Source of the DNA: an uncultured Clostridia bacterium
GTDB lineage: Bacteria > Bacillota > Clostridia > Christensenellales > UBA1242
NCBI GenBank assembly: GCA_934747965.1
Contig: CAKVHI010000001.1
Span: forward strand, 65,703 to 129,702
DNA: 64,000 nucleotides
Direction: 5' to 3'
This document shows, in pieces, positions 22,401 to 53,203 of this stretch. The position numbers and the translations under genes are program-made. Numbering within the stretch: the stretch's first letter is position 1; the number at the start of each line of letters is the position of its first letter. The notes below the pieces were generated by a model. The model was not told the origin of the DNA. It worked only from the letters and a program-made list of their open reading frames with translations, and did not search any database.

Positions 22401-23001
22401 ATTATATTTTAGTCAAAGATATTTCTTTGACTTTTTTAAGTCTTTATTTTGAAATTCTATCCACAATAATTCTAAAAAGAACTTGAAGAAAACCAAAAAT
22501 TTGCAAATTTGATAAAACTAGACGGTTCATCCTTTAATATCGCAAAAGTTTAACAAAATACCCTTCTGAACTTTGGCAAAAACAAGACATTGAAGCAAGC
22601 ACAGGTAAAACTGCAACACAAATTGCAGACTTTATATTTAAAAATAAGATTAAATTTAAAAAAATCTCTTAAAAGAGTTTTTTTAATTATATTTTATCTT
22701 ATCAAAAACAACTTCACAAAAATATCTAACACGGAAACATAAAAATTTATGCCAGAATTAGCAACAAAAACAAAGCAAAGCAAAGTTTTTTCAATTTTAA
22801 CACAAACATAAATTAATATTTGTGAATTATAAAAAAAGTTTGACAATATTCAATTTTTCATTTATACTATTTTCGTTTTAAACTTAATACAATTTTAACA
22901 GTAAATTTTGCACATTAATATGTAAAACACACAAACTAATAAAAATTTACTCAGCCAAACAACAAAATTAAACTCAATCTAAAAGACTATCTAATAAATC
23001 T

Positions 23002-23039
23002 GCTGGTGTGGCTCAGCGGTAGAGCACCACCTTGGTAAG
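23002..23039 (+). pseudogene. 5' half of a disrupted tRNA-Thr gene (acceptor 5' strand GCTGGTG through the anticodon loop TTGGTAA)
   Basis: gctggtgtggctcagcggtagagcaccaccttggtaag aligns with the first 38 nt of the complete tRNA 100 bp downstream. Similarity stops abruptly after TTGGTAAG. Confidence 0.8.
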
Positions 23040-23101
23040 ATTTGAAATGCCTAAAATTACCGACTTAAAAACTTTATAAATTAGCCTATTTTTATAGATA
23101 T

Positions 23102-23176
23102 GCTACTGTGGCTCAGCGGTAGAGCACTGCCTTGGTAAGGCAGGGGTCACGGGTCCGATTCCCGTCAGTAGCTCCA
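23102..23176 (+). tRNA. tRNA-Thr (anticodon GGT), complete, CCA encoded
   Basis: A hand-folded cloverleaf. Acceptor GCTACTG/CAGTAGC; D arm GCTC-AGCGGTA-GAGC; anticodon arm CTGCC-TTGGTAA-GGCAG; T arm ACGGG-TCCGATT-CCCGT. A hairpin terminator follows. Confidence 0.85.
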
Positions 23177-23305
23177 CTTATTAAAAATCGCTAAAACCCT
23201 TTATTTTCCTAGGGTTTTGGCGATTTTTTTTCTCATTTTTTAACAAAATTTTTTAGGTAAAAAAATATTTGCTGTCAATTTTTGGTGCAATTGCTGTCAA
23301 ATTAT

Positions 23306-24673
23306 TTACATCTCAAAATCTTTTTCTTTTCTTCTGCGTTTGCGTTCTTGCAATTTTTCAAGTTCACGAATTTGGCGTTCTATTTCTTCATCAGATAATT
23401 CATCATCAATTTCTTGTTCAACTTCTCGCTCTTGTTCATGCTCTTGGATTTTGGTGTTTAATCTATCGGTGGCTTCTCTTACATATTCACTATTAACCGA
23501 GTTGTAGACAGTGATTGTAGTTTTCACATCACGGTGTCCTAAAAGTTGTTGAATTACTTTCGGGTTTTCATTCATTTCAAAAAGCATATTTGAGAAAGTA
23601 TGACGAAGTCCGTGAAAGTGAATGTGGTATTTATTTAGTCCGTTTCTTCGTTTAAACCTATCAAAGATTACCCTTGTGCCATAATAAGTTCTATAACTTC
23701 CATTATCATTAGCAAATACAAATGAAGTCGGTGCAGTTAAAATTGCTGTTACATTTGGATTAGTTTCTTGTCTTTTACTTTGTTTTTCTTTCCATCGTTT
23801 TAAGGTTTCTAGGACAATATCCGTAACAGGAATATCTCTAACACTACAAGCAGTTTTCGTGTCACCAATAACAGTTGTGCGGTCTTTAACATTGCCTTGC
23901 TCATCAAACTTTAAAGTTTGAGTAATTGCTCTTTCAATTTTTATTGTCTTATTTGCAAAGTCAATGTTTTTCCATTTAAGTGACAGAGCTTCACCAATAC
24001 GAAGCCCAGCAAACATTAAAGTAATGCAAAGTGGTTTGATAAAGTTTGCTTCATCTTTATTTAATGCATCTAAAAATTTATCTCTTATTTCAGGTGGCAA
24101 GGCTTTATATCTTTCATCACCATCTTCTTCATAGACATTTCTTTTGCCTTTAACCTTTACTTTCAAAGTTGGGTTGGTGTATATCCATTTATTTTCAATG
24201 GAATACTCAAAAAATTGATTTAATAAATGTTTACACTTCTTTATGGTGTCCACGCTATAACCTTGGTCTAAAAGAATATTTACGAATTTTTGAATTGTGT
24301 AATTGTCAATTTCATAGACTTTCATTTTGCCGATATGTGGAACAATATGCAACTTAAAGTTTCTAATATTACCTTCAAAAGTTCGTGGACTTACAGTGCT
24401 TTTTTTGAATGTCATAAGATATTCAAACATCATTTTTTCAAGGTTGCTATTTTCAACAAGTCCGTAAGAATTGCTTTTAACTCTACCACTTATTTCAGAT
24501 AATTTTTTAGCAACTTCAGCTTGTGTTTTTCCATAAATTGTTTTTCTAATAATCTTGCCGTTTTCATCATAGCCCATAGTTAAGGCTCCGCCCCAACGAC
24601 CATCGCTTCTTTGAAATATTGAGCCTTCGTTGTTGGCTCTGCGAGTTTTGCTTACAACTTTCTTTCTAGCCAT
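23306..24673 (-). CDS. int: Tyrosine recombinase / phage-type integrase
   Basis: AGLRIGE, HGLRHTF and LLGHRDVKTTITVY (catalytic Tyr). It also has an unusual ~60-aa highly charged E/R/K-rich C-terminal tail. Confidence 0.9.
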   Translation of the reverse strand: MARKKVVSKTRRANNEGSIFQRSDGRWGGALTMGYDENGKIIRKTIYGKTQAEVAKKLSEISGRVKSNSYGLVENSNLEKMMFEYLMTFKKSTVSPRTFEGNIRNFKLHIVPHIGKMKVYEIDNYTIQKFVNILLDQGYSVDTIKKCKHLLNQFFEYSIENKWIYTNPTLKVKVKGKRNVYEEDGDERYKALPPEIRDKFLDALNKDEANFIKPLCITLMFAGLRIGEALSLKWKNIDFANKTIKIERAITQTLKFDEQGNVKDRTTVIGDTKTACSVRDIPVTDIVLETLKRWKEKQSKRQETNPNVTAILTAPTSFVFANDNGSYRTYYGTRVIFDRFKRRNGLNKYHIHFHGLRHTFSNMLFEMNENPKVIQQLLGHRDVKTTITVYNSVNSEYVREATDRLNTKIQEHEQEREVEQEIDDELSDEEIERQIRELEKLQERKRRRKEKDFEM

Positions 24674-24929
24674 TTTGCACCTCGCTTTGGTTGTTGTTTA
24701 GTGTGAGCCAAGTAACAAAATTTAGCACACTCACAACTTGTCGTTTGCCAACTTTGGTTGTTGGGAAAGATTTGCTTCTAAGCAAGTTCCTAACATTATC
24801 TCTGCCAAGTCCAGTAATTTTGATAAGGTCTTCGCAATCCAAAAAATCTTTGTTGTATTTAGTTGAAATTCGGTCAACTTCCGATTGTATTAAGTTGTTT
24901 AAATTTAGATTTGTATTGTTTAAATTCAT
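24666..24929 (-). CDS. xis: Excisionase-type HTH DNA-binding protein
   Basis: An 87-aa protein with an 8-nt overlap with int. The HTH string is LIKITGLGRDNVRNLLRSKSFPTTKVGKRQVV. Confidence 0.6.
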   Translation of the reverse strand: MNLNNTNLNLNNLIQSEVDRISTKYNKDFLDCEDLIKITGLGRDNVRNLLRSKSFPTTKVGKRQVVSVLNFVTWLTLNNNQSEVQNG

Positions 24930-25220
24930 AGTTTAATTTTCCTTTCATAGTTTAAATTTAACTCCTTTCTAAAACATATTTTTTATCTCTTTCTAAATCT
25001 AAATTTATTAAAATCTATTCGCATCGAGCGTAATAGAAGTAGCAACTTTGTTGCCAGTAAGAAGTGTTGGGTATCCCAACAGCTTCCAAAAATGACGAGT
25101 AAACATAGTAAATTTAAGTGTATCAGTTAAAAGTGCCGATTTTATCGGGCTTTTACGCACTAAATTTAGTAATTGTTTCTCGCTTATGCTCTATACTAAA
25201 TATCTACCTAAAATGCTATT

Positions 25221-25682
25221 CTACATCTCAAAATCACTAGATAAATAGCCTTCATCAATGAGTGTTTTAATTCGCATTTCTTCCAGCTTTCTCATATAGT
25301 CCTGAAAACACTTAATTGCTTCGTATTCACACTTTGAATTTAGGTACATACAATGTTCAAGTTCTTTCCAAAGTTTGTCTTTTTGCATTCGCTTTTGGAC
25401 TACATATTTTGCGTTAAGTTTTAATCTTTCAATCTCTTGACCTTTCAAACTTTTAGCACTTTCAATCACCAAATTCCCAAGCCTGCGATACAAGTCTTTT
25501 GTATATTTTTCACTCAGATTTTGTTGTGGTTTTGGGGCGCCATTTCGCTTGCAGTAACTATCTACCAATTTTTGTTTTTCTTCCACAAGGTCATCAAAAT
25601 CATTTTTGTAAATACTAATATCAACATTATGGGAGATAATATAGTTTGAAATGTTGTCAATATTTGGTTTGATTTTTTGCAT
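25221..25682 (-). CDS. Hypothetical protein (island mob module)
   Basis: An ORF in an operon-like arrangement, with a hairpin plus T-run downstream at about 25136-25160. No recognised motifs. Confidence 0.4.
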   Translation of the reverse strand: MQKIKPNIDNISNYIISHNVDISIYKNDFDDLVEEKQKLVDSYCKRNGAPKPQQNLSEKYTKDLYRRLGNLVIESAKSLKGQEIERLKLNAKYVVQKRMQKDKLWKELEHCMYLNSKCEYEAIKCFQDYMRKLEEMRIKTLIDEGYLSSDFEM

Positions 25683-25709
25683 ATTATCGCAGTCGTAAAA
25701 TGTGTGTCC

Positions 25710-26420
25710 TTACTCTGGAAATTGATTTGCTAAATCTAGTAGCATTTGCTTTAATTTAAGCCCAGAAACATCGTTTAATCGCCCTTTAACACTCTTAGTT
25801 AGTCTTAACCTTATTTCTTTCTCACGAGCCTTAAAATCGGTTGCAGAGAGTTCAATATTGGCTTTCAAAAAATCCATTGCATTGTTTGAAATATAGCCAC
25901 GAGAAAAATGCTTTTCTTTGTTTTTCATTCGCTGTGGTTCTTTCTCAAAAAACAACAAATGAATATGTCTATTGTCAGTATTCTCGTGTAGTCCAGCAAA
26001 CCACTCTATATTGTCGGGATTTAGTCCAGCCCGTTTGAAATATCTTGGCAGTTCGCTTTTTACAAGTTCGTAAGCTTGTTCATAACAGCCACACCATTTC
26101 TTGCCAAAGTTTTCTTCAAAGGAAATAATGCCGGACCAAATAACCGATTTAGTTTCTCTTAAATTCTTTCTAAAATCTGCAATTTGTTCTTTGCTCATAA
26201 GTCCATTTTGGTTAAAGATTCCACTAGACTTTGTGCTGTTGTTTGAATACTCAACAAAGTCCAATTTTTCCAAATCTTTAATGCCAGTAGCAACATATTT
26301 TAGGTAGTCGTCATACTTGTTAGATGAGTAATAATTTCGCTTGTCTTGATTGGTTTTGTCTTTGTAGTTAGGCAAAAAGAACTCTTGTTTGTAAACCACA
26401 TTTGGAACTTTATCTAACAT
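25710..26420 (-). CDS. MobL-like relaxase (short form)
   Basis: The histidine triad-like LHENTDNRHIHLLFFE (H-x-D/E...H-x-H) and SGIFNQNGLMS / VIWSGIISFEE resemble Firmicutes MobL relaxases. Confidence 0.5.
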   Translation of the reverse strand: MLDKVPNVVYKQEFFLPNYKDKTNQDKRNYYSSNKYDDYLKYVATGIKDLEKLDFVEYSNNSTKSSGIFNQNGLMSKEQIADFRKNLRETKSVIWSGIISFEENFGKKWCGCYEQAYELVKSELPRYFKRAGLNPDNIEWFAGLHENTDNRHIHLLFFEKEPQRMKNKEKHFSRGYISNNAMDFLKANIELSATDFKAREKEIRLRLTKSVKGRLNDVSGLKLKQMLLDLANQFPE

Positions 26421-26871
26421 CTATTAGCTCCCTTAAAATCCTATCTCGTTCGGTGTCAATTCCATTTTCATCTAGTGGTTCATATTTCCATCCTTGCGAG
26501 TAAGCGTTTAGATTTATAGGGCTTTGTTTGTTGAGTAGTTTAGTGATTAAATTAAGCAGTGCTTGATTTATTCTCACATTTGCATTAGTATCCACAAAGT
26601 CCATTTTTTGGTTTGCAGATATGGTTGTGAGTTTGTCGTTTATCTCTTGCAAACTTTTTCTAATCTCGCTGAAATTTATGCTTTGGTTGAGTACATTATC
26701 TCCAAGCATTTTGTCAGCACCAAGCAAAGCAAAATATTTTATAGCGTCATTTAGGCTATCAAACTTGTCCTTAAACTTTTCAAGCGCTCGCTTAAAAATC
26801 TCATACTCATCTTGACTGTAAACTCTAATCATATATTGAGTTTTCAAATCTTTTGTTTTAATTCTAGCCAT
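26410..26871 (-). CDS. Hypothetical protein, possible relaxosome accessory (RHH-like N-terminus)
   Basis: An 11-nt overlap with the relaxase gene. The N-terminal TQYMIRVYSQDEYEIFKRALEKF looks like a ribbon-helix-helix beta strand plus helix. Confidence 0.3.
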   Translation of the reverse strand: MARIKTKDLKTQYMIRVYSQDEYEIFKRALEKFKDKFDSLNDAIKYFALLGADKMLGDNVLNQSINFSEIRKSLQEINDKLTTISANQKMDFVDTNANVRINQALLNLITKLLNKQSPINLNAYSQGWKYEPLDENGIDTERDRILRELIDVR

Positions 26872-27165
26872 TTTAGCCTCCTAATTATTTTCTAGTCTTT
26901 CTACATCTCTTTCTATTTCTAATTAAAGGGGCAATGATTGTTTTTGTTTGCTTTTACATTTTTAAAATCCTCCTTTTGTTTGAATTTACTTACACGAAAA
27001 AATACCTATCGGGGTAATAGGCAATATTTCGTTTTATCTCTTTCTACTAAATTTTTAATAAGAAAAAAACAATCTTGTAGTTCTGCAAACCAGTTTTCTT
27101 TCTTTATTAAATTTTCTTTCTTTATCTAACAAAACAAGAAAATATATATTTTTATTATTATATAT

Positions 27166-27209
27166 AAGAGTGGGGACGAACTCATTTAAGAGTGGGGACG
27201 AACTCATTT
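27166..27209. repeat. Perfect tandem duplication, 2 x 22 bp (AAGAGTGGGGACGAACTCATTT)
   Basis: Read directly: 27166-27187 is identical to 27188-27209. It is flanked by three copies of TTTGTTAGA(T/G) at 27124-27133 (reverse complement), 27213-27222 and 27272-27280. Confidence 0.9.
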
Positions 27210-27417
27210 TTCTTTGTTAGATATAAAAGTGTGTTTAGGTTGCTGACTTGAAAAAATTGCATTATTTTTTCTTTGTTAGAGATATTGCGGGAGCAAAGAA
27301 AAAGAACTATCTTTTGACAGTTCTTTGCTAATATATTTAGCTCCTACATATATAAGGACATTTTAAAGTGAAAAATTAAGTATCTTTTTTGAAAAATTTA
27401 TAAATTTTTTATTTTTT

Positions 27418-28167
27418 TTATTTTATTATTAATTGATTGCCTTTTCCTTCCAAATCAGTAATAAAATTATCTACCATTTTTAAGACTTGCACAACATTTC
27501 CTTTAAAGTTCTTTAAGTTTTCAAAATGTGCTTCAATGCCATAATCAGCAAAGGTTTTATTTGTTTGTTTTATCCAATTATCATCAAGGTTAGAATAATC
27601 TATTTGTTTGGATAATTGTTCTCTAATGCTCATATTTGATTTGGTCATAATGCTGTGGGTTATTGCTTTTCTTATTTCTTTTATAAGATTTTTAACTTCA
27701 TTTAAGTCAATAGAAAGCATTCCTTTTTGTCTTACTTCTCGCAAATAGGCATTAAACAGATATTCAGCTTCAGATTGAAATTTATCATAAAAGGAAGATT
27801 GAGAAAATATTTCGTTGTTACATAGTATTGTTCGATAATTGTATATAATTTTTTCAAGCCTTTGATTTATTGCACTTGAGCTAATATTAAAATTTTTAGC
27901 AATAAGATTTTGTTTTATACCGGAAAGATATTGACACAAAATCAACTTGTCTTGTCCTTGCAATTTTGCCAAGCTTTCTTTCAAAATTTGTTTATCTATC
28001 TTTGCCACCATTTGGTCAACAATATCCATATTTTCATGCAATGAATGTTCGTTTAAATATCTTTCCAAATAGTCTTGACTTTGCCCACCTTGGATAGTAG
28101 AAAAATTAACTTCATGTCTTCTAATTTTTCTTTCTAAACTTTCTTCTTTGATTTCTTTTTCTCCCAT
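27418..28167 (-). CDS. HTH protein with a sigma-70 region-4-like segment
   Basis: LILCQYLSGIKQNLIAKNFNISSSAINQRLEKI. It has its own extended -10 (TGGTATAAT, reverse complement at 28186-28194) and an AGAGGT RBS before MGEKE. Confidence 0.5.
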   Translation of the reverse strand: MGEKEIKEESLERKIRRHEVNFSTIQGGQSQDYLERYLNEHSLHENMDIVDQMVAKIDKQILKESLAKLQGQDKLILCQYLSGIKQNLIAKNFNISSSAINQRLEKIIYNYRTILCNNEIFSQSSFYDKFQSEAEYLFNAYLREVRQKGMLSIDLNEVKNLIKEIRKAITHSIMTKSNMSIREQLSKQIDYSNLDDNWIKQTNKTFADYGIEAHFENLKNFKGNVVQVLKMVDNFITDLEGKGNQLIIK

Positions 28168-28271
28168 ATTGATACCTCTAAATTCATTATACCATAAATT
28201 AATCAAAAGCATTGGGGTTTTAGCATAAAATTATAAAAACACTCAATCGTTTAAAATTGAGTGTTTGCTAT

Positions 28272-30179
28272 TTAATTAGATTTCATTTCTAATTGATGAG
28301 GTTCTTTTAAAGCTCTATCAATTATATTTTCAGTACTTATATTATCATAATGTTCTCTTAAAGAATCTCTTAATTTAAATAATCTGTTTCTAGATGTCTC
28401 TATTAATTGGCCAAATGTTACAGCGAAAATCCGACCACTTGATGTTTCTTTTTTAGCATCGATATCTCCAAGTGTATTGCCGACAACATAAGCTGTAATT
28501 TCTGCATCTTTATGTAATACTGCACTTTTTTTAATTTGTCTAACATAATATTCTACTTGTGCAACTTCTTCTGGAGTAATTTCAAACCCTCCACGTTTAA
28601 CTTCAATTATTAGGATTTGATCTGGTTTCATTAATTTAGCATCACTGTCCATTTTATCAGAACACACTGCTTTTAATGAATATTTTTTTAAACAAACAAT
28701 ATCAGGTCTCTTTTTAGAATTTTCTATTTCGGTTAAATCATAATCTTCATCTTTAAACAATTCTTTCACAACCGTTGAAAGTGTTTTATTTGATGTAAAC
28801 ATTGGAGAATCAAACTCGGCACCAAATAGCCATCTTGAATTTAAAATAATTGGGTGGATAGTATGTAACTCATCTATAGTTTTATCTTCTCCTAATCTTT
28901 CAAGTGTCTCAATTACAACAATTCTTTTATCAATTTCATCTAAAACAGTTGCAATATCCTCAATCGTCCATTCATTAAGTATATCCGATAATTTGTTTAA
29001 AGAATCTTCTTCCATCGAATTTAATTGTTGAAGAAGTCTTTCTCCGTTTTTTGATTTTTCAATTTTTGCAAAAGTTTCAACTGCAAGTTTCAAAAATTCC
29101 GGATTTATGACTGGATTTTGTTCAGTAATTTCTTCAAGAAATTTAGATATGTCACGTTTGCCAGAAATACTTAAACCTTCAACTTCATCACGTACACCTT
29201 TAATAATATCATATTGTACGGATTCAATTTGGTCTTTCATAATCATTTTAATCAATTTATTGATATATGGTTCTAATCTATCAAAAAAGTTATTAGTAGT
29301 ATCATTATTATAAAATCCTGACCAATCTGGCAAAATGAATTCTTCTATATCATCCGATTTTATAACAATTGTGTATTTTTTAGCTAATCTTAACCTACCA
29401 TCTATAAATTGAATATTATTATAAGACCAAGATGGACTACCGACTAAACGATTACTAACCCAAAAAGCAAGTCCATGTTGCTGATTTTTAATTGCTGTTT
29501 TTGTTGAGTCAATCATTATAATTTTTAAATTGTATTTATTTAACAATGTTATTTCTTCTTGATAAACAATTCCTTTATGCTCCATCAAATCTATTTGATT
29601 TCCATTAAGTTTTACTGAAAATTGTGGGTCATACAAAAATCGTACGGATAAAATTTCCTTAATTTGTTCAAAATCAGGTACATGTCTGCTAATTTCAGTA
29701 CTTATTTTTGTACCATGTCCTTTTTTCTCGCTTATTTGATGCTCCGTAATTTTATATGGAGCATCTCCTTCACTTATTTCGATTTTATATTTATTTAATA
29801 TACCATCTTTCCAAGTTTCAACAAAATAATAATCTGAGAAACAAAGCATACCATGTCTACCAATTCCGTTTCTTCCATAAGGTTTGCGAATTGTTTTGTC
29901 GTCAGCATTTGGGAATACTACATTATCACCTTGTTGTTTTCTGCGATTATAGTTTAAAGTCATCCATCTAGCACGAAATTCTTCATCAGTCATTCCAGTC
30001 CCATCGTCTTCAATAGAAATTGTTTGTCCTATTTCATATGGGATTCTAATATCAACATTATAGGCTCCAGCATCCCATGAATTTGAAATAAACTCTGTTA
30101 AAGCAATATCAGGAATAGATGTGATATTTTTATGATTTCTAAACAAATATCCTTGTTCAAATCTTATTCCATTACTCAT
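28272..30179 (-). CDS. GHKL (MORC/HATPase_c_3-like) ATPase fused to a C-terminal PD-(D/E)xK nuclease-like domain
   Basis: GHKL N-box EFISNSWDAGA, G1 box EDDGTGM and G2 box GRNGIGRHG. The C-terminus has WLFGAEF ... RPDIVCL ... ILIIEVKRGG (D...E-x-K), reminiscent of Shedu/DUF4263-type nuclease domains. Confidence 0.7.
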   Translation of the reverse strand: MSNGIRFEQGYLFRNHKNITSIPDIALTEFISNSWDAGAYNVDIRIPYEIGQTISIEDDGTGMTDEEFRARWMTLNYNRRKQQGDNVVFPNADDKTIRKPYGRNGIGRHGMLCFSDYYFVETWKDGILNKYKIEISEGDAPYKITEHQISEKKGHGTKISTEISRHVPDFEQIKEILSVRFLYDPQFSVKLNGNQIDLMEHKGIVYQEEITLLNKYNLKIIMIDSTKTAIKNQQHGLAFWVSNRLVGSPSWSYNNIQFIDGRLRLAKKYTIVIKSDDIEEFILPDWSGFYNNDTTNNFFDRLEPYINKLIKMIMKDQIESVQYDIIKGVRDEVEGLSISGKRDISKFLEEITEQNPVINPEFLKLAVETFAKIEKSKNGERLLQQLNSMEEDSLNKLSDILNEWTIEDIATVLDEIDKRIVVIETLERLGEDKTIDELHTIHPIILNSRWLFGAEFDSPMFTSNKTLSTVVKELFKDEDYDLTEIENSKKRPDIVCLKKYSLKAVCSDKMDSDAKLMKPDQILIIEVKRGGFEITPEEVAQVEYYVRQIKKSAVLHKDAEITAYVVGNTLGDIDAKKETSSGRIFAVTFGQLIETSRNRLFKLRDSLREHYDNISTENIIDRALKEPHQLEMKSN

Positions 30180-30194
30180 TTAAAATCCTCCATA

Positions 30195-33100: not shown

Positions 33101-33464
33101 TTTTATTTCCGTCATATTCATATTTACTCGTTAACAAGGAAATACGATAATTCATTTCATCAGGATTTACAAAAGAAACTAAAGCATTATCTATGCGAAA
33201 ACTTCTCAAAATTTTAAACATTTCTTGAGTAATTGCAACTCTTTTGTTTTTTGAACCCTCTTTTAAATATACTTCGAAAACAGTTAAATTGCAAAGAGAA
33301 GATTCTCCAAGTTGTTTTACGGATTGAAATATTCCATTATTAAAGTGCACATCATGTTTAGAATTTGCAAAATCAGGTAACAAGAGTTCATTTACTAAGT
33401 AAATGAAATTGTCTAAATGATATTCATGTTTTAATATTTCTTCAGCATCTTTAATTGATATCAT
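30195..33464 (-). CDS. Large N6-adenine DNA methyltransferase (Eco57I / PglX-like gamma-class)
   Basis: FYTPRDIVDYMV, SAM motif LDPACGSGAFP and catalytic motif VIGNPPYLEA. It has long N- and C-terminal extensions (1089 aa). Confidence 0.85.
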   Translation of the reverse strand: MISIKDAEEILKHEYHLDNFIYLVNELLLPDFANSKHDVHFNNGIFQSVKQLGESSLCNLTVFEVYLKEGSKNKRVAITQEMFKILRSFRIDNALVSFVNPDEMNYRISLLTSKYEYDGNKIVRVLSNPRRFSYSLGFGTKTKTAYKFLIEKGKVNNLEELIERFSVEVVNKQFYNEIALCYSKLVGGERDGKKFDKQLNLHGVIDQKKYAEFAVRLIGRITFCWFLKEKKSENGIPLIPEKYLTIDEINNQDNYYHKILEPLFFELLNTKQEKRKDKYIGNEYKQIPYLNGGLFSPHNDDLYRYDKLTQCGQYGLVTIPNDWFKQFYEVLNQYNFTVDENTSYDIELSIDPEMLGRIFENLLAEINPETGENAKKSTGSFYTPRDIVDYMVDTSLCEYLKKESGIDQLRLKALISYGKEDDTIATFDLSEKKRIINALYNVTILDPACGSGAFPIGMLQKIVYILQEVDPNADLWFDKATENVSILLKKEFEKKFNDGSLNYIRKLSVIQNSIFGIDIQPIAVEISRLRCFLSLVIEEKVKDEEYNRGINPLPNLDFKFIIANSLIGLEENSQMSLFENEDHINRLKAVRDEYFNAESDRRTELKLEFKDIQQDMLLNTIANYQKQASVRYQQLSSWKPFENESTNWFDADWMFGVKDGFDIVIGNPPYLEARNSNFPDWEKDILQKQLKQRYGKKFDLITRGSDLLIYFYELSLRMIKPDGINAFITQNSWLDTEYGAKFQQFLLNMTNVLAIIDSDFKAFESANINTVITFFEGNKGCKKDVVFARCHKSFIDYHFPVENNSNEINEDATIKKFSKDSDLITNNKWGFLFNSDIEFLNLMQSLNKVGKKENEVNWLKIGQGLNITKDYVITDIPKFITKENLIPYLNVDESGFYDWKTTKTYILSNEKLSGEQVKQINQNGIKVFDEIKTKRNKPSLILPRGVGGKHFCSINSNKGYSASCVDIYLNQDKYLPNLWIFMNSTLFWLIREMSGRKSLGGGMLKAEAVDLKQFPIYFEFNNVEEIKKLMIETSDIKVLNATEELETDHHKRIDAFLFKELEISHEMQNYIINKFVEKFNDRVNKSKTK

Positions 33465-36400
33465 TTCTTAAATCCTCCGTAAACATAATAATTTCTGATT
33501 GTGCGTCTATACTTTCAACTTTTTCTTTTATTTGAACAATATAATGGACAGGTATTTTCGATTTCAAATCATCAATTATTTCTTTTATATTATTTTTTCT
33601 TATAGTTAATTTTGATAAATACTTTAATTCGCCATCACTCAAATCATCATATGTTTTAATAACATCAAGCAAATCAGATAAATAATCCTTTTCACTTGGA
33701 CAAACCACTTTTAATTGTTCCAAATTGTCTATTGCCGTGCCTTTTCTTTTATCTAAACGAATTTTAGGATAAGGCTTTCTTATTTCGTCACGTAATATTG
33801 CAAATTTTTTATCTAGATTTTCATCATACTCATAGCTCGGTTCGTCTTGCTTAGCTTTAAAAAGTCTTAAAACTCTTTCAGGGGCAACTATTTCTGCTCT
33901 GTTTTCATAAGGGTGAGCAATAGCAAATAATGCAGTATTTCCTCTTTTTGCAAAAGATATTGCACATGGTTCTGGCTGATTTTTTCTTACAATTCTTGCT
34001 CTTTCAGGAATTTTAAGAGTTTCATCTATGAATGTTGTGTTGTGTTTGATTGAATTATAAATATTTTTAAAATCATTATCCCAACTTTTCTCATTGTTTT
34101 CAGCATTCGCTTCATCATATTGAGATTTGAAATAACTTTGTAAAGTTTCATCAGGTGTCAATGTTCTTGTATCGCTACCAACAATATTGTTTATCAAAAA
34201 CATTTTTAAAGTAGAAATACCTTTGATTAGTGTATTCTGTTCACCAATGTCTGTTGGAAAAAGATTAAATATAAATATTTTATCGAACATCTTTCTGTTA
34301 ATACGATTGATACGACCAATTCTTTGAACAACTCTTGTTGGATTGTATGGAATATCATAGTTGATAATAACACCAGCTCTATTCAGGTTGAAACCTTCAC
34401 TCAAAGCATCTGTAGCAACAATTATATCGTAATCATTCAATTGTTCACCTTGTTTATAAGAAGCATCAAAATTTTGTTTTACAATATTTCTATCAATCTT
34501 AGATGAACCACCAGTATATATTAGAACTCTATAATTATCATCTTCAAGACGCTGTTTTACATATTCTGCAGTATCCGCAAAAGTAGAGAAAATAACAATT
34601 TTACGATTTTTATTTTCTTTTAATAGATAATTTATTTTTCTGCTGATTTCATTGTATTTTGGGTCTTCACCAACTTCTTCAGTAGCAAACCATTCATGAT
34701 AAATTCCTTTAAGTAAATCAATATCACTTTCAATTGCATGAATAAAATCTTCTTTAAACAATTCTCTAGGGATTGGAATAGCTTTTTTCTTGATTTTATC
34801 CACATCGATTGGTTCATTATCTATGCTATTGATTTCTTCAAGGGTTTCCATTATTTCGTCATCGTTTGGGTCTGATAAATATCCACTTTTCTTAATTGGG
34901 ACATATCCTTTAGCCCACCATTTTTTAATGTTTTCATAAGAACTAAATAAACTTGTCAATGTTGATTTAAATGCTGCTTTAGAACTTTCGAAACGCATAA
35001 CAAGTAATCTTTTAATAAATTTAGCAAGGTTGCCTTGGAATAACTGAATGTTCATTTCACCGAACAATTCACCATACTTTTTATTAAATTCTTGTGGATT
35101 AATCAAGTAAGCAGATGGATTATATCTGGCACAGATAAATTGATTACTTAGTTTATCTAATGTAGATAAATATAATTGCCTAATTTCTCCTAAATCATAT
35201 TCAACAAGTTCTGGGCCTACAACTTCAGGAAATTGAATGTTTTGCATTTTTAAATCTTCTGCATATTCTTTAACTTCCTGCAAATCAAGTCTAGAACGTC
35301 TAACAATTACAGGGTCTATTAATATTCTTAGTTCTTCACTTAATTTATCTAATTCTTTCTTTATTGCTGCTGTAAGATTTTTCTTACCTTCTTTTTCTAA
35401 CTTATTATATTTAGCAATTAATTCATGAAATCTTACGCCTAAGTTATCAACAGAATTTAAAGTTGACCTACTTGGAGTTTGGAATAACTTAATCAAAGCA
35501 AATAAATCTTGTGGTCTATTGTTATATGGCGTAGCAGTTAAAAGAATGACTTTGTTTTCTGCATTAGAACGTGTTAATTGGTGCAACCATTGATAGCTAT
35601 CGCTTAATTCGTTTCTATATCTATGAGCTTCATCAATTATGTATAAAATAGGGTCTGGGTCAGTAGCATACTGTCTATACAATTCTTCCATTCTACCGCT
35701 ACTACAAACTTTTACACCACGCAGTCCAAAGTCTTGTTGATATTCATTCCATTGGTCAACAAGGTGTGGTGGAGCAATAATAACCGTTTTCCTCAAATTT
35801 AAGTTATAAGCAATTGCAGAAGCAATAACAGATTTACCAAGACCAACGACATCGGCAACAATTACACCATTATTTTTGTTAATACAATCAACACCATATT
35901 TAATAGCATCTAATTGATATTTTAAATTAGAGAACTTGCCATTGGTTATCTCTGTTGGAGCAATAATATTACTTTTGTCTAATGAGTTATAAAGTTCAAA
36001 TAAAATACGAATGAAGATATGGTATGGACTTGGTTGAGCAAAGACCCATAATTTCTTTTTAAGTTCATTTTCAAATTCTTTATTCCCATCTTTAATGCAA
36101 ATATCGATAGATTTACTATCGTTCCATAACTGCTCAAAACTTCCCATATATTCTTCATATTTACTGTTGTCGCTAAATCTTTCATTCATCTCGCCTTGTC
36201 CAAGCAATCCATTGTATGTAAAGTTAGATGAACCTGTAAACACAACACCCTTCTGGTCGCCAAAGCAAGAATATTCTGGCTTATTAGTTAGAATATATGC
36301 CTTAGCATGATTTTGAGTTGCAGTTAATCTTATTTCAAGAGAACCATCCTTAATTTTACTCAAAAACATTTTAAAAACTTGTTGGCTATCGGTAGAGTCA

Positions 36401-36744
36401 AATTCTTCTGATAATGCAGATTTATTAAATAAGTTTATAAAACTTTCCACATAAGAGTTTTTCTTTTGTGAATTATTTAATTTACTGTAACCTCTAACAG
36501 CATATGTTTCCAACAACTCATCTGGACTATCTTTTACCGCATTACATAAATCTTGTATTGCATTCGGATCAATAGTATTGCCAACCAAAATTCTAATCTT
36601 CTTGTCTTTTAATTCATCAGCAAGTGCATTAAATCCAGAAAAATAGAAGAATGCTGTTAATATATCTACACTTTCAGCTTGTTTTAAAGAATTTTTCAAA
36701 GATTCCAGCATTGTTTTGTTTTTATTATCTATTATAGATGCCAT
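33451..36744 (-). CDS. PLD-family (single HKD) nuclease domain fused to an SNF2-family helicase
   Basis: N-terminal HKD motif NHAKAYIL...TGSSNFT. Helicase motifs DVVGLGKS (I), IIDEAHRYRN (II), LLTATPYNN (III) and QRIGRINR (VI). Confidence 0.85.
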   Translation of the reverse strand: MASIIDNKNKTMLESLKNSLKQAESVDILTAFFYFSGFNALADELKDKKIRILVGNTIDPNAIQDLCNAVKDSPDELLETYAVRGYSKLNNSQKKNSYVESFINLFNKSALSEEFDSTDSQQVFKMFLSKIKDGSLEIRLTATQNHAKAYILTNKPEYSCFGDQKGVVFTGSSNFTYNGLLGQGEMNERFSDNSKYEEYMGSFEQLWNDSKSIDICIKDGNKEFENELKKKLWVFAQPSPYHIFIRILFELYNSLDKSNIIAPTEITNGKFSNLKYQLDAIKYGVDCINKNNGVIVADVVGLGKSVIASAIAYNLNLRKTVIIAPPHLVDQWNEYQQDFGLRGVKVCSSGRMEELYRQYATDPDPILYIIDEAHRYRNELSDSYQWLHQLTRSNAENKVILLTATPYNNRPQDLFALIKLFQTPSRSTLNSVDNLGVRFHELIAKYNKLEKEGKKNLTAAIKKELDKLSEELRILIDPVIVRRSRLDLQEVKEYAEDLKMQNIQFPEVVGPELVEYDLGEIRQLYLSTLDKLSNQFICARYNPSAYLINPQEFNKKYGELFGEMNIQLFQGNLAKFIKRLLVMRFESSKAAFKSTLTSLFSSYENIKKWWAKGYVPIKKSGYLSDPNDDEIMETLEEINSIDNEPIDVDKIKKKAIPIPRELFKEDFIHAIESDIDLLKGIYHEWFATEEVGEDPKYNEISRKINYLLKENKNRKIVIFSTFADTAEYVKQRLEDDNYRVLIYTGGSSKIDRNIVKQNFDASYKQGEQLNDYDIIVATDALSEGFNLNRAGVIINYDIPYNPTRVVQRIGRINRINRKMFDKIFIFNLFPTDIGEQNTLIKGISTLKMFLINNIVGSDTRTLTPDETLQSYFKSQYDEANAENNEKSWDNDFKNIYNSIKHNTTFIDETLKIPERARIVRKNQPEPCAISFAKRGNTALFAIAHPYENRAEIVAPERVLRLFKAKQDEPSYEYDENLDKKFAILRDEIRKPYPKIRLDKRKGTAIDNLEQLKVVCPSEKDYLSDLLDVIKTYDDLSDGELKYLSKLTIRKNNIKEIIDDLKSKIPVHYIVQIKEKVESIDAQSEIIMFTEDLRNDIN

Positions 36745-36814
36745 AATTATCTCCTATTTTCAATCATTATAACACATAATTATTATAATTTATATATAAT
36801 AATTAAAATTTTTC

Positions 36815-37537
36815 TTAATCTTCCAACACAACCACATTCACTTTATGTGAATAGGTAGTGCAAGCGTCTATGGCTATCATATTTTTTGTTATGAAAGGTT
36901 CAAAATTGGCCTTATCTCCAAATTCTTCGTATTCGTCTGGATTTTGTTCGTGCCATAATGCAGAACAATGCCAATGTCCACAAACTATTGTTTTGTTTGG
37001 TTCGTAGATTTCATATCTATACATTTCTACTGGGTTTATCCAGCGAGCCTTTTCCCAACGTTCTTTTCTTGCTGTTCGCCAATCACTATCATACAAATAG
37101 CAATTTTCAATAATTGGTATCCAGCCGTGAACGAATATGTAATGTTTTGTTTCGTAGTAATCAATACACATATCTAGAACTTCTTGGAGTCTAGTTTCTT
37201 TTGGTATCTTTTTAAGGTCAAATTCACTTATTTGCCACTCTGGATACAAATCAACAATTGTTTGTGCTGTTCCATTACAAATGTCGCCATAATCACTTGA
37301 ATTTCTTTCAATCATTTGTTCCATCAAGTCTTCGTGATTGCCACGAATAAGAATTACTTTATCTTTGTGTTTTAGAACAAAATCTATAATTTCTTTTGGT
37401 TGGTTTCCTCTATCGAACAAGTCGCCACAAAGAATTATTTTGTGTTCAGGATTGCTTATATCAAATCCTTTTTCTTTTAATGCTGACTGCCATTCATCAT
37501 AAAATCCATGAATGTCGCCAGATACAAAATATTTCAT
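36815..37537 (-). CDS. Calcineurin-like metallophosphoesterase (Ser/Thr phosphatase-like)
   Basis: GDIHG, GDLFDRG, GNHE and GHWH motifs. Confidence 0.8.
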   Translation of the reverse strand: MKYFVSGDIHGFYDEWQSALKEKGFDISNPEHKIILCGDLFDRGNQPKEIIDFVLKHKDKVILIRGNHEDLMEQMIERNSSDYGDICNGTAQTIVDLYPEWQISEFDLKKIPKETRLQEVLDMCIDYYETKHYIFVHGWIPIIENCYLYDSDWRTARKERWEKARWINPVEMYRYEIYEPNKTIVCGHWHCSALWHEQNPDEYEEFGDKANFEPFITKNMIAIDACTTYSHKVNVVVLED

Positions 37538-37551
37538 AAAAACCTCTAATT

Positions 37552-38418
37552 TTAAACTGACTGTAATTTTTTTGTTATCTCAATAAAAAATTCTTTACTC
37601 CACAAATCAAGTTTTGTTTTATCTTTTATGAAAGGCAAAACATCTTGTTTTGCTTGCTCTATATCTAGATTTTCAAATCTTTCGTTTAGTAATGCTTTTA
37701 AATTATCAATAGTTAAATCATAATTTTCATTAATAAACTTTGACTGAACCAACTTTGCTTTCAAATTTTCCAAATTCACTTTTGCACCGATTGACAAAAA
37801 GAAAATATAATCGTAAAAATCTCTACCTTTCACTCTTGATTTCCAATTCCTGCAAAGGCAAGCATGAATTTTACCTGCAAATAATGATTGCAAATCGTAT
37901 AATCTTACTTGATAAGGAGAAGGCAACAGTCCAAACTTGGTTTCATAAGTTGCACCAGTTGGTGGGTTAATGTCCACTTCAAACTTAATTCGTATAGCTT
38001 CTTCTTTATTGATAAATTTAGAATCTTCACTATCTTCATAGAAAGATAAAATATGTTCTTTTGTGTTACCCTTTAAGAATGCAGATTTTATATTGGAATC
38101 AACAGATTTAATTTTCTCTGTCACATTGAAATTTAAGCCAAGTGATTTTGTCTCGTTTTCAATATATTGAAAATATTTGGTTAAATCAAAATCTGGATTT
38201 TGTGTTATTAATGAAAAATCTAAATCTTCACTAAATCTATCCAATCCATAAAATATTCTTAGTGCAGTTCCACCATAAAATGCTGCTTCTTTAAAAAATC
38301 CACCACGAGATAGTCCACAAAGAACGATTTCTTGAACAATTTCTTTTATGGCATTCTTCTTATCTTCGATATTGTTAATTTGATATTTTGATAACATCTG
38401 GCTTAATACTTGTTGCAT
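37552..38418 (-). CDS. abiEii: AbiEii/AbiGii-family nucleotidyltransferase toxin (type IV TA)
   Basis: FYGGTALRIFYGLDRFSEDLDFS, and a position immediately after an AbiEi-like gene. Confidence 0.8.
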   Translation of the reverse strand: MQQVLSQMLSKYQINNIEDKKNAIKEIVQEIVLCGLSRGGFFKEAAFYGGTALRIFYGLDRFSEDLDFSLITQNPDFDLTKYFQYIENETKSLGLNFNVTEKIKSVDSNIKSAFLKGNTKEHILSFYEDSEDSKFINKEEAIRIKFEVDINPPTGATYETKFGLLPSPYQVRLYDLQSLFAGKIHACLCRNWKSRVKGRDFYDYIFFLSIGAKVNLENLKAKLVQSKFINENYDLTIDNLKALLNERFENLDIEQAKQDVLPFIKDKTKLDLWSKEFFIEITKKLQSV

Positions 38419-38419
38419 T

Positions 38420-39007
38420 TTACTTTTCTCCTTTAATAAATTTTACAAGTAAATTTAAGTTTGTTGAGTGATATAGTGGCGCAAGTTTTAAAATGTCTTG
38501 CTTGTTTAATTCGTTAAACTTGTCTTCATCTATTCTTAAATCTTCAAATAGCAATCTTTCTAAATCTTTAATAGTTTTCACGGGAGATATAGTATAAAGT
38601 TTATCGCAAAGCGCTTTTTCTGCTGTTGCCATTTGATATGAATATTCTTCATCTTGAAAAGCAAGGACTCCCAAACTAAATACCGCTTTAGGAACATCTC
38701 TATAAATAAAAGTTCCAAAACTATTTGTATATGTCTTAATTTTTTTCTTATTGTAGGTTGCACATGTAAATGTGTTGTAAACCGCTTCGGGAATTAATCC
38801 TTGCTGATACAAAACATAATCAAAGGATAAATAAGATGGCCCATAAATAAATTGTGCAAGTCTTGAACCATTAGTATTTGGATTGGTTTCATAAATTCCT
38901 TTAACCAAAGGAAATAATTTTCCTTGTATTACATCTCTATTTATTTTTGCTATTGGATTTGAATAATTAGCATATTGTTCTTTTAATTGTTGAGTTGTGA
39001 CTATCAT
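38420..39007 (-). CDS. abiEi: AbiEi-family antitoxin / transcriptional regulator
   Basis: The N-terminal winged-helix-like region ending LVKGIYE and its pairing with abiEii. The start is taken at MIVTTQQL, preceded by GGAGGG. Confidence 0.7.
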   Translation of the reverse strand: MIVTTQQLKEQYANYSNPIAKINRDVIQGKLFPLVKGIYETNPNTNGSRLAQFIYGPSYLSFDYVLYQQGLIPEAVYNTFTCATYNKKKIKTYTNSFGTFIYRDVPKAVFSLGVLAFQDEEYSYQMATAEKALCDKLYTISPVKTIKDLERLLFEDLRIDEDKFNELNKQDILKLAPLYHSTNLNLLVKFIKGEK

Positions 39008-39014
39008 ATATTCC

Positions 39015-39114
39015 CTCCAGATAATGCAATTATATAATATTATCTGGAGAAAATCAACCAATTTCACGATATTTTCTCCAAATAATGCAGTAAAAGTGCA
39101 TTTTCTGGAGAAAA
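39015..39114. promoter_or_regulatory. Two palindromes built from four copies of TCTCCARAWAAT upstream of abiEi (candidate operator)
   Basis: IR1 is CTCCAGATAAT (39015-39025) against ATTATCTGGAG (39039-49). IR2 is TTTTCTCCAAATAATGCA (39072-89) against TGCATTTTCTGGAGAAAA (39097-114), with 2 mismatches. Confidence 0.5.
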
Positions 39115-39338
39115 TATGGTTTTGTAAAAAATCAATTCACATAGTTTAATGATATAAACTTAACTGGCTTCAACAAATTTTATATCATTGCAATGATACA
39201 GTTTCTCAAAAAGCATATAAATTTGGGATAATTTATAAGCACACTGAAAAACTTTCAAACTTTCACTAGCAAAGTATTAGATATTTTTAGGCGATTTTAG
39301 ACAGGTTTAAAAAGACATAAATGTTGAGAAAAGTGCGT

Positions 39339-39737
39339 GTAGGTACATGTAGGTACATAGGTTTGAAATGGTTATGTACCTAATAAGAAAAATACTAGCG
39401 ATTTTGCTAGTATTTTAGGCAATTGTAGGAGATAGGATTGAAGTTTTTTAAAAATATTTTTAAGTTGGTAAGGCAGGGGTCACGGGTCCGATTCCCGTCA
39501 CCAGCTCCATTAAATAAAAGTCGCTAAAACGCCGATAAATAAAGGCTTTTAGCAATTTTTTTATTTGCAAATTTTTAGAGCACGACTCTCTTCAAAAAAT
39601 ACATTAGGTACACAAAATTGTCATTTTAGGTACACAAAAATCGCATAAAAAAAGACCGAAAATTGAACTTGCCAACTTTCGGTCTAATTCTCTCTAAAAC
39701 TGCCCAAAACTACTACGTTAGGTACATTTAGGTACAC
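39339..39737. repeat. Seven copies of TAGGTACA(Y) flanking the tRNA 3' fragment
   Basis: Copies at 39339-48 and 39349-58 (tandem), 39374-82 (inverted), 39605-13, 39627-35, 39719-27 and 39729-37. Confidence 0.85.
39465..39509 (+). pseudogene. 3' half of the disrupted tRNA-Thr (anticodon loop to CCA), right island junction
   Basis: Positions 39465-39500 are identical over 36 nt to 23132-23167 of the complete tRNA. They are followed by the acceptor 3' strand CACCAGC, which pairs with GCTGGTG at 23002, and then a hairpin terminator. Confidence 0.8.
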
Positions 39738-39747
39738 GATTTTATTG

Positions 39748-40002
39748 TTATTGTAAGATTTTCATTTTTATAATTAATTTATTTATTATATCTGGATATT
39801 GAGCAAGTTTACTAAATGGATCATTGATTAAAGATTGAACACGTTGAGTATCTGATTTTATGTAAATTGCCAAATCATCAATAGATATTTTTCTCACTGG
39901 TTCAATTGTGTTTATAACATGTAACATTATTCCTTGTCCGTAAGCATCAGATAAAAGATAATCTATTAATTTTTTTATATCAGTTTGTTCAATATCATTC
40001 AA
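39748..40002 (-). CDS. Hypothetical protein
   Basis: ORF only. It lies in a region of apparent remnants. Confidence 0.25.
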   Translation of the reverse strand: MNDIEQTDIKKLIDYLLSDAYGQGIMLHVINTIEPVRKISIDDLAIYIKSDTQRVQSLINDPFSKLAQYPDIINKLIIKMKILQ

Positions 40003-40384
40003 GAATTCCCCATATTTGCTATTTTTTAATGATATACTTTCATTAGCATAGTAATTCTCTCTTAATTTTTCTTTCCCATAATATTTTTTAATAAAATATT
40101 ATTGGTCTTCTTAAATATTAATAACAATGCAACTAATACAGGATACCAATAAAGATATTCAACTTGTTCTCCTTGTTGTTTTTTTTCATTACATATTAAG
40201 TTAAGCTCTAGACATAATCTGTTATAATATTGCGAACTTGACACTTTTGCAATAGTTAAAATTTGCAAGAGTTAGAAAGATTAGTTAATGAATAAACTTA
40301 AACAAAGAATAAAGTTTGTTTGACAATATATAGACAATATATATATAATTTTAGTATAAAACAAAATCACAAAGGAGAAATATT

Positions 40385-40963: not shown

Positions 40964-41070
40964 CTTACAACTGTATAATTGTATTTAAATAATTGTCACA
41001 TTTTTGAAAATTTAGTTTAATTAATTAAAAAAACAATATGAACAGGGACTAATAGATTCCGCAAATTTAC

Positions 41071-41223
41071 TTAAAAACTAACTTTACTAAAATTTCCCCA
41101 TTTAGCATATTCTATTGCTTTTTGCAGTTCTCTCGCAAGCCAATATTCACTACCATCATCTCGTTTGCGTTTTATATCTTCAAAAGATTTGTATTCACTT
41201 GAAACAATTTCATTTTCTAACAT
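41071..41223 (-). pseudogene. Truncated DinD / Bro-N-like N-terminal fragment (50 codons)
   Basis: The translation MLENEIVSSEYKSFEDIKRKRDDGSEYWLARELQKAIEYAKWGNFSKVSF* matches the N-terminal pattern of DNA-damage-inducible protein D, then stops. Confidence 0.4.
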
Positions 41224-41376
41224 ATCTTTCCCCTTATGTTGATTATAACATAAACATCATCTTTTTGTATTTCAATTTCTATAAATATTTGCATTTACTT
41301 TCGTGTTTTGGTTTTCGCCACTTAAAAATTTAATTTCGTGTATCCTATTGTTCGTATGCACTGTAGTTCTAACTGA

Positions 41377-50767: not shown

Positions 50768-50773
50768 TAACTC

Positions 50774-53189: not shown

Positions 53190-53203
53190 AACACAAAAAC
53201 AAT

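Follow-up and report, generated by a model that had tools for sequence, protein, structure and literature searches.

A tRNA-Thr(GGU) gene split in its anticodon loop and very probably replaced by an element-borne copy at a defence island of uncultured gut Clostridia

The locus described here lies in a stretch of 64,000 nucleotides (the window) from contig CAKVHI010000001.1 of an uncultured Clostridia bacterium, and consists of an island of 16.4 kb (23040-39464) that is enclosed by the two separated halves of a tRNA-Thr(GGU) gene and carries a complete tRNA-Thr(GGU) just inside its left end. All coding genes between the halves are on the minus strand. The three tRNA pieces had been reported in an initial annotation of the window; their positions were re-read in the sequence and were confirmed. 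The features of the locus are collated in Table 1, in which the allele of the orphan 5′ half is designated A and the complete gene within the island tRNA_B.

The orphan 5′ half, with the acceptor strand GCTGGTG and the anticodon-stem strand CCACC, ends with the loop TTGGTAA plus G and is identical to the 5′ half of an intact gene, tRNA_A, which occurs 13 times in relatives. It is the chromosome-side half of attL. Both orphan halves break exactly at the anticodon loop. As had been annotated, their acceptor strands GCTGGTG/CACCAGC are complementary (7/7 pairs), the anticodon-stem strands CCACC/GGCAG contain two mismatches (3/5 pairs), and the two junctions share the anticodon loop plus 1 nt (TTGGTAAG, 8 bp; canonical copies in relatives share CCTTGGTAAG, 10 bp). 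The 36-nt identity of the right-hand piece with the internal tRNA (23132-23167) was likewise reproduced. Words of 20 and 23 nt from the tRNA are confined to these places in the window (0 expected in shuffled sequences), and the 5′ and 3′ halves were detected by nhmmer with E-values of 4e-11 and 2e-14, respectively; a chance origin of the tRNA halves is excluded. A putative older, eroded orphan with a spacer of type A upstream of 23002 was dropped, its local alignment score being met by 96 of 500 shuffles.

The complete tRNA_B starts exactly 100 bp past the start of the 5′ half, in agreement with the initial annotation, and was called by ARAGORN and by Rfam (tRNA model, 68.7 bits against a gathering score of 29); of the three pieces tested, the middle one alone was recognised as a tRNA by these programs. 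Within the 984-kb assembly (10 contigs, 29% G+C), tRNA_B is the sole tRNA-Thr(GGU), and ACT and ACC jointly account for 25 in every 1000 codons. The hairpin behind tRNA_B was not flagged by a simple scan for terminators at 23187-23232. One annotated detail had to be corrected: the integrase gene had been said to begin 130 bp beyond the tRNA, but it is located on the minus strand, so that its stop codon lies there and the tRNA and the integrase gene converge. The T-loop reads TCCGATT in alleles A and B alike, so that position 55 is a C (window 23150-23162 and 39483-39495). This position is near-universally U (pseudouridine-55) in tRNAs, and the other tRNA-Thr alleles of the family have the canonical T-loops TTCAAGT or TTCGAAT. 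The C55 allele is presumably functional, since many genomes have no other tRNA-Thr(GGU).

Table 1. Features of the tRNA-Thr(GGU) locus and of the island, with positions in the window.
Feature	Position	Strand	Remarks
Resident sigma-70-like promoter	22840-22868	+	TTGACA-17-TATACT, 11/12 matches; 134 nt upstream of the orphan 5′ half
Orphan tRNA-Thr(GGU) 5′ half, allele A	23002-23039	+	38 nt; GCTGGTG TG GCTC AGCGGTA GAGC A CCACC TTGGTAAG
Spacer B, element DNA from core to element tRNA	23040-23101	+	62 nt; begins gatttgaaatgcc
Complete element-borne tRNA-Thr(GGU) B (tRNA_B)	23102-23176	+	GCTACTG...CTGCC TTGGTAA GGCAG...CAGTAGC TCCA; CCA encoded
Terminator of tRNA_B, hairpin then T run	23187-23232	+	read from the sequence; conserved in the alignment of relatives
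Two TTGCTGTCA(A) arm-type repeats, element-side (P′) arm	23269-23300	+	four copies plus hairpin in relatives
Tyrosine integrase	23306-24673	-	455 aa, apparently intact; Phage_integrase 1.3e-26, SAM-like and central domains; PHROG 1 integrase 7.7e-65
Open reading frame of 87 aa, conserved backbone	24666-24929	-	overlaps the integrase start; weak PHROG matches of unknown function
MobL-family relaxase, broken	25221-26420	-	single in-frame stop at codon 237 (25710-25712)
Rest of conserved backbone	26410-28212	-	153-aa frame, structured intergenic region, 264-aa frame with faint sigma-factor-like match
Cargo triad: GHKL-type ATPase, Eco57I/IIG-like N6-adenine methyltransferase, PLD(HKD)-SNF2 helicase	28272-36744	-	
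Cargo: metallophosphoesterase and AbiEii/AbiEi toxin-antitoxin (abortive infection) pair	36815-39067	-	AbiEii 8.8e-109, AbiEi 7.6e-59
Right (P) arm	39258-39464	+	three TAGGTACA (39340, 39350, 39375 inverted) and ACTAGCG..GCTAGT hairpin
Displaced 3′ half of target tRNA	39465-39509	+	45 nt; TTGGTAAG GCAGG...CACCAGC TCCA, then hairpin
A module, 3′ of displaced half	39510-39737	+	terminator, two TAGGTACA, minus-strand terminator hairpin 39647-39684, two TAGGTACA

Relatives of the locus were found by a search with the joined flanks, and tRNA halves were mapped with profile hidden Markov models at 80 loci encoding homologues of the integrase. The records are gut metagenome-assembled genomes filed under Christensenella sp., Clostridia bacterium, Ca. 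Caccovivens and Ca. Onthoplasma. Orphan 5′ halves were present upstream of 53 of the 70 complete tRNA-Thr(GGU) genes, as one (38 genes), two (12) or three (3) consecutive halves. The loop TTGGTAA is intact at the end of each of the 76 orphans and at the start of each of the 23 distal 3′ halves, and the start-to-start period was 100 ± 1 nt in 51 of 71 cases. The arrangement was also scanned for independently of the integrase, as a pattern of core, 40-70 nt and the 5′ end of a tRNA-Thr, with a reversed control. Within the host family, 80 of 201 genomes, from 32 of 58 genera, have this junction (reversed control: 1 hit); among other families of the order it was found in 6 of 145 genomes. The longest ladders contain four or five core-spacer-tRNA-start junctions with mixed spacer families (G158:C4:43409-43973, G178:C11:28461-28845 and G041:C37:25-396).

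The spacers fall into unrelated families, each of which is tied to one tRNA allele and to one type of integrase arm. Spacer B precedes tRNA_B in G001, G003, G019, G045, G068, G084, G102, G126, G148, G187 and G210 and at loci L037, L038, L054 and L095, among others. The whole unit, composed of the spacer beginning with gatttgaaatgcc, the GCTACTG..CAGTAGC tRNA, its terminator, TTGCTGTCAA repeats and the integrase gene, recurs in many genomes behind different orphans. The annotated possibility that the element carries a whole replacement tRNA inside its left end is borne out by this recurrence, and the internal tRNA and the integrase do travel together in homologous islands. A short motif, AACT(T/G)AATA(T), is shared by otherwise unrelated spacer families, either about 30-40 nt past the core or directly before the tRNA start (window 23078-23087, L022, L021 and G012). 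A role as a processing signal or as a protein-binding site near the core is conceivable; in some cases the motif lies too near to the tRNA for a -10 box.

Clean splits were found at L022/G018, L037, L049 and L051, where the acceptor stem (7/7) and the anticodon stem (5/5) are fully paired between the inner orphan and the distal 3′ half and the internal tRNA differs. The halves in G018 are separated by a 4.1-kb element with a divergent tRNA-Thr of its own, an integrase gene and a fused restriction-modification gene; the integrase of the L037 element is 98% identical to that of the window. When rejoined, the halves of G018 and of L037 each give exactly allele A, the allele found intact elsewhere. 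An uninterrupted gene of the form GCTGGTG...CCACC TTGGTAAG GTGGG, sought in relatives as the initial annotation had proposed, is present in the same-genus genome G005. This unsplit tRNA_A stands beside a homologue of dinB, the gene that flanks the locus in the window. A split arrangement lacking the island genes was seen in no related genome examined. Because the clean cases rebuild a consistent target tRNA around a differing internal tRNA, they are read as a split of the target followed by its replacement.

Two cassettes, spacer A with tRNA_A and spacer B with tRNA_B, displace each other in turn. The order at L095 is B 5′ half, spacer B, B 5′ half, spacer A and tRNA_A; at L037 it is B 5′ half, spacer A, A 5′ half, spacer B and tRNA_B. 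Changing partners were also observed at the opposite end of the elements: an AbiE-bearing end reading ...ggcacaagtttggagcaaaggttcgtgtg-TTGGTAAG is joined to three 3′ halves in three samples (L126 in ERZ28564035, L121 in ERZ28613912 and L125 in ERZ28614237), namely to that of tRNA_B with TTGCTGTCAA arm sites, to that of tRNA_A with its module, and to a truncated and decayed half. Since one end is found on three different halves, the element lands in whichever tRNA-Thr(GGU) allele is present, which fits integration needing little more than the anticodon loop.

The locus is very probably explained by recombination at a core in the anticodon loop that left the target split and replaced it with a complete element-borne tRNA, the copy in the window being a decayed composite. 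The attP site was deduced from the junctions; at attL, the core is followed on its 3′ side by the unrelated 62-nt spacer and by no tRNA 3′ part. Integration would proceed by site-specific recombination in the 7-nt loop TTGGTAA of the resident tRNA-Thr(GGU). With no tRNA 3′ part beside the core of attP, the target would stay split and its 3′ half would be moved 16.4 kb away. The loss would be made good by the complete tRNA-Thr(GGU), 62 nt inside attL and in the orientation of the target, and this incoming tRNA would probably be read from the resident promoter as an orphan-spacer-tRNA transcript. Because the incoming tRNA carries the same anticodon loop, it would offer the next landing site, so that islands could nest and orphan 5′ halves could stack with a period of 100 bp. 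The circle of canonical copies would read ...tagaacccgacc-TTGGTAAG-atttgaaatgcc..., followed by the complete tRNA_B, and that of the island in the window, if formed, ...TTTTTAAG-TTGGTAAG-ATTTGAAATG.... Promoters were sought with a consensus scan. Of 50 arrays, 11 had a match of at least 10/12 in the 100 nt before the outermost orphan; none of 64 spacers had such a match, and no match in the 62-nt spacer of the window reached 9/12.

The arms of the island were compared with those of related elements. Each integrase at least 72% identical to that of the window is accompanied by three or four TTGCTGTCA repeats after its tRNA, and more distant integrases by TAGGTACA, TAGGTGCA, AGGTGTCA and other motifs. 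The TTGCTGTCA group, which includes the window, forms one clade of the integrase tree (SH-aLRT 100); the arm-motif labels require 14 changes on this tree against 25.3 in shuffles, a value reached in 0 of 200. Canonical right arms in the clade of the window's integrase have two TTGCTGTCA repeats and end with ...tagaacccgacc-TTGGTAAG. Alignment with relatives revealed a deletion of 106 bp in the left arm of the window, which took away two of the four repeats along with the terminator hairpin of the integrase gene. Clusters of TAGGTACA were found between tRNA and integrase in 14 sister-clade elements and on both arms of L075, and the right arm of the window, with its TAGGTACA repeats, thus appears to belong to elements of another integrase clade and not to the resident integrase. 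No remnant of the canonical right arm of the resident clade was found inside the island.

The sequence 3′ of the displaced half could be assigned to an older element family. This A module (228 bp) has the same layout as an intact left arm and is kept in G007, G008 and G018 with lineage-specific repeats; at L084 and L086, tRNA_A is followed by six TAGGTACA repeats and an integrase of the other clade, 60% identical to that of the window. Because the module has left-arm architecture and is followed at L084 and L086 by an integrase of the other clade, it is best regarded as the likely relic of the element-side arm of an older TAGGTACA-arm element that brought tRNA_A and whose integrase is gone. 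No second integrase of this family was found in the genome, and a tblastn search with five integrases to the right of the module (39740-44000) for a second-integrase remnant returned nothing. The initial annotation had also considered two successive events, and both the repeats of two different integrase clades on the left and right arms and the nature of the A module are in line with that proposal.

Similarity to other elements of the resident integrase clade ends sharply at about 28170 (L037 matches the window over 23302-28168 at 89%, and the similarity of L038 and L091 ends at the same place). The left end and the backbone up to this point would thus derive from the TTGCTGTCA-arm clade, and the cargo and the right arm apparently from a TAGGTACA-arm element. 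The most parsimonious course of events comprises four steps. First, tRNA_A would have received a TAGGTACA-type element with defence/AbiE cargo, a TTGCTGTCA-type element would then have inserted into the tRNA of that element, deletions would have removed the inner junctions together with the second integrase, and decay (the left-arm deletion and the MobL stop) would have followed; other orders would fit as well. The island is probably fixed, because its left arm has lost half of its sites and a stop codon interrupts the relaxase gene; its foreign tRNA has become the only tRNA-Thr(GGU) of the host.

The displaced 3′ half is a mosaic, with the B-type anticodon-stem strand GGCAG and the A-type acceptor strand CACCAGC. 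Allele A has GGTGG, from which the fragment of the window differs at exactly two positions, both with B-type bases. The same-genus genome G007 has the same arm, junction and outer flank at 95-98% identity and reads TTGGTAAtGTGGGGG-CACGGG (GTGG type), which differs from allele A by 2 changes and from GGCAG by 4. Allele chimeras are common in the family: L036 combines an A 5′ half with a B 3′ half, G008 has a B 5′ half, GGCAG and an A acceptor, and L126 has a hybrid terminator. The GGCAG patch would therefore be best explained as templated, either by gene conversion, which the initial annotation had named as a possibility, or by a crossover in the 25-nt stretch of shared T-arm sequence; from these comparisons, a templated event seems far more likely than two random hits. 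An assembly artefact at the GGCAG junction was considered and rejected: the arm and the tRNA share a sequence of just 8-9 nt, the interior matches an independent assembly at 99.96%, and the junction is confirmed by G007. In the part of its contig that was retrieved, the chimera at L036 (11601-11675, CAAGAO010000029.1) was the only tRNA-Thr(GGU) found. It pairs 5/7 in the acceptor stem and 3/5 in the anticodon stem, and is followed by a B-type arm and an integrase 98% identical to that of the window. It could have arisen either by classical-type integration through a site composed of right arm, core and 3′ half or by deletion between two loops, and its function is doubtful.

Several other explanations were weighed against a split of the target with replacement by the element's tRNA. 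If the locus were a classical island, 23102-23176 would be the regenerated target, the 36-bp repeats 23132-23167 and 39465-39500 would be attL and attR, and the upstream half would be an unrelated older scar. The 36-nt identity and the matching anticodon stem GGCAG/CTGCC are accounted for in this way, forms carrying a 3′ half do exist in the integrase family (L075 has a full tRNA_A, no orphan and a distal 3′ half), and the hybrid tRNA of G008 (GCTACTG..GGCAG..CACCAGC) would be the required target. However, the displaced acceptor strand CACCAGC pairs at 5/7 positions with GCTACTG and at 7/7 with the orphan, and the 5′ half of tRNA_B and the 62-nt spacer travel with the element behind different orphans, hence they are not host DNA. 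Every orphan, moreover, breaks exactly at the loop, and the right arm is foreign to the resident integrase, which makes a classical island quite improbable. Possible, if rather unlikely, is an origin of the mosaic other than by conversion after insertion, in which the right-hand element landed in a target that already had GGCAG (an A′ allele or tRNA_B) and a crossover in the T-arm (25 nt) later added the A acceptor and the A module. A self-consistent A′ tRNA (GCTGGTG/CTGCC/GGCAG/CACCAGC) does occur at L080, the same arm family is joined at L126 to GGCAG...CAGTAGC of tRNA_B, G008 contains the full-length hybrid with GGCAG and CACCAGC, and GGCAG follows a homologous arm at L107. On the other hand, the same arm-core junction in G007, with flanks of 95-98% identity, carries a GTGG-type fragment, and the left orphan of the window has CCACC and not CTGCC.

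The island might also be a single intact mobile element whose integrase uses heterologous arms, with the TAGGTACA repeats serving as operators, for example of a regulator on the abiE side. The full-length integrase frame, the operator-like arrangement TAGGTACAT-G-TAGGTACAT ... ATGTACCTA and the pairing of a TTGCTGTCA left arm with a TAGGTACA right arm at L054 as well would agree with this, but TAGGTACA clusters occupy the tRNA-integrase interval in the 14 sister-clade elements and both arms of L075, and the window lacks 106 bp of its own arm and has a broken relaxase, so that an intact element is judged improbable. A role of replication slippage, by which the orphan halves would be local tandem duplications of the promoter-proximal region of the tRNA gene and unrelated to integration, could be suspected from the regular 100-bp period and from arrays with identical neighbouring halves (G012) or with two near-identical neighbouring spacers (G128). 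It is exceedingly improbable in view of orphans that as a rule are unlike the adjacent tRNA and correspond to distal 3′ halves at a distance of kilobases, of breaks that all fall at the loop, and of spacers in unrelated families that are each specific for an allele and an arm type.

The following points weigh against the preferred reading of target split and replacement. The two halves in the window give an inconsistent tRNA, and a classical island with 36-bp direct repeats fits the anticodon stem better. No excision product, circle or empty site of the window's own island was seen; a metagenome scan for the attP or tandem junction (non-C before the core, then spacer B) gave 0 hits, and a relaxed pattern gave 5 loci, all of attL type. 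Capture of the resident promoter is predicted from the consensus scan. The TTGCTGTCA and TAGGTACA repeats are putative integrase arm sites, assigned by their co-variation with the integrases, and this rule has a single exception in L054 (CAKVOD010000004.1), which has tRNA_B and a left arm with four TTGCTGTCA repeats, yet an integrase of the TAGGTACA clade and a TAGGTACA right arm, a mosaic in the opposite sense to that of the window. The same arm family is already joined to a GGCAG half at L126, so that the patch could predate the present arrangement. Finally, the composite history requires two deletions and one conversion, and alternatives in the order of events fit too.

The genes of the island were examined with Pfam, PHROG and PADLOC. 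The integrase is 98% identical to those of L035-L039, and the 87-aa frame beside it may, as a guess, encode an excisionase or a regulator. The N-terminal part of the MobL relaxase is 97% identical to an intact 399-aa homologue in G008, and its stop codon can be put down either to inactivation in the very recent past or to an error in sequencing. For the cargo triad, the best PADLOC match was C3a139 'HKD+Snf2', accompanied by REase_MTase_IIG and by weaker similarities to DrmD, DrmMI and PglX; it is a candidate restriction-like defence module that fits no canonical system. The region 27552-38586 is 99.96% identical to an independent metagenome assembly (L120). In the island, the integrase and the MobL relaxase with its in-frame stop were accompanied by no type IV secretion system genes and no identified origin of transfer, and capsid, tail, terminase and lysis genes were not found in 23040-39464 (Pfam and PHROG scans). 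The element is best described as a putative integrative mobilizable defence island and not as a prophage, since MobL and defence genes are present and phage structural genes were not seen.

The surroundings of the locus also deserve mention. The region to its right (49685-60007) is likewise rich in mobile and defence genes: a large serine recombinase is encoded at 55381-56865 and a DpnII/MboI-like endonuclease at 58967-60007, together with an HNH endonuclease and Dam-class and C5 methyltransferases. Between dinB and the tRNA locus (21672-22400) lies a gene for a protein with collagen repeats and a BclA C-terminal domain; no DNA match to this segment was found in the same-genus genome G005.

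The arrangement resembles the tRNA-dependent lysogeny described for the actinobacteriophages Fionnbharth/K4, Cluster L, Cain, Gaia, BrutonGaster and others (Guerrero-Bustamante & Hatfull 2024, PMC10865867), in which a tyrosine integrase uses an attB within a tRNA gene, attP and attB share 8-17 bp, the tRNA gene is not rebuilt and a cognate tRNA is carried by the phage; prophage Lj965 of Lactobacillus johnsonii is also noted there. In the window, a tyrosine integrase gene likewise lies beside the attachment site, the halves of the target tRNA-Thr(GGU) flank the island, the shared core is short (8 bp), and the element has a tRNA-Thr(GGU) of its own that travels with the integrase at no fewer than 53 loci. 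Relatives with a classical attP containing the 3′ half coexist in both settings, as Boilgate beside Fionnbharth and as L075 beside the cassette forms. The carrier here, however, is not a temperate phage but a putatively mobilizable island that combines a MobL relaxase with defence cargo; its integration would follow the manner of the phage system without being lysogeny. The tRNA of Fionnbharth is located away from attP and has its own promoter (PMC10865867), whereas the tRNA here lies 62 nt from the core, is co-oriented with the target and is apparently promoter-less. Serial re-targeting, which leads to ladders of orphans at 100-bp intervals and to nested or composite islands, is a further difference, and the host is a family of gut Clostridia with genomes of about 1 Mb from a different phylum.

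With classical tRNA-targeting islands as defined by Islander, including those of the anticodon-loop 'A' sublocation (PMC4383910), the locus has in common a tyrosine integrase that crosses over within the anticodon loop, boundaries formed by a tRNA gene and a 3′ fragment in the same orientation, and tandem or nested arrays at one tRNA gene. It differs from them in that no 3′ fragment in attP restores the gene: the functional tRNA is wholly element DNA, including its 5′ half and the spacer, and an additional 5′ fragment remains beyond the island's left end. A search of the Islander type would set the left boundary about 92 bp inside the true one. Integrative and mobilizable elements of Firmicutes with MobL-type relaxases have a similar backbone of integrase, small open reading frame and relaxase, with variable cargo and no genes for a conjugation channel. 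Unlike those, the integration module here holds a complete tRNA, and the copy in the window has a relaxase pseudogene and arms that do not match. A literature search gave no report of such splitting and replacement in islands, integrative and mobilizable elements or integrative and conjugative elements; its coverage was incomplete, and absence from it is not proof.

The phage mechanism, which was demonstrated by experiment in 2024 and for actinobacteriophages alone, thus appears to extend to non-phage defence islands of uncultured gut Clostridia, where the comparisons suggest it to be the rule for one integrase family, and about 40% of the sampled genomes of the host family carry the arrangement. 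Island finders that rely on a tRNA gene plus a 3′ fragment misplace the left boundary of such islands and miss the foreign origin of the live tRNA. The compact module of core, spacer, tRNA and integrase, which requires no more than the universal anticodon loop of tRNA-Thr(GGU), is a candidate tool for broad-host integration in untractable Firmicutes. Orphan ladders provide a relative chronology of invasions. It is conceivable, although held with somewhat less than even confidence, that the tRNA-Thr(GGU) locus acts as a self-renewing landing pad and hostage system, in which each island destroys the resident gene, be it that of the chromosome or that of an earlier island, and installs a promoter-less copy behind the resident promoter. 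If so, the only tRNA-Thr(GGU) of the host would always be owned by an element, and loss of the newest island, unless by precise excision, would cost the cell this tRNA. Rival islands would displace each other's integration modules while accreting cargo, and the tRNA allele of the host would evolve through serial replacement by mobile elements and not by descent, with the 100-bp ladders recording the order of invasion.

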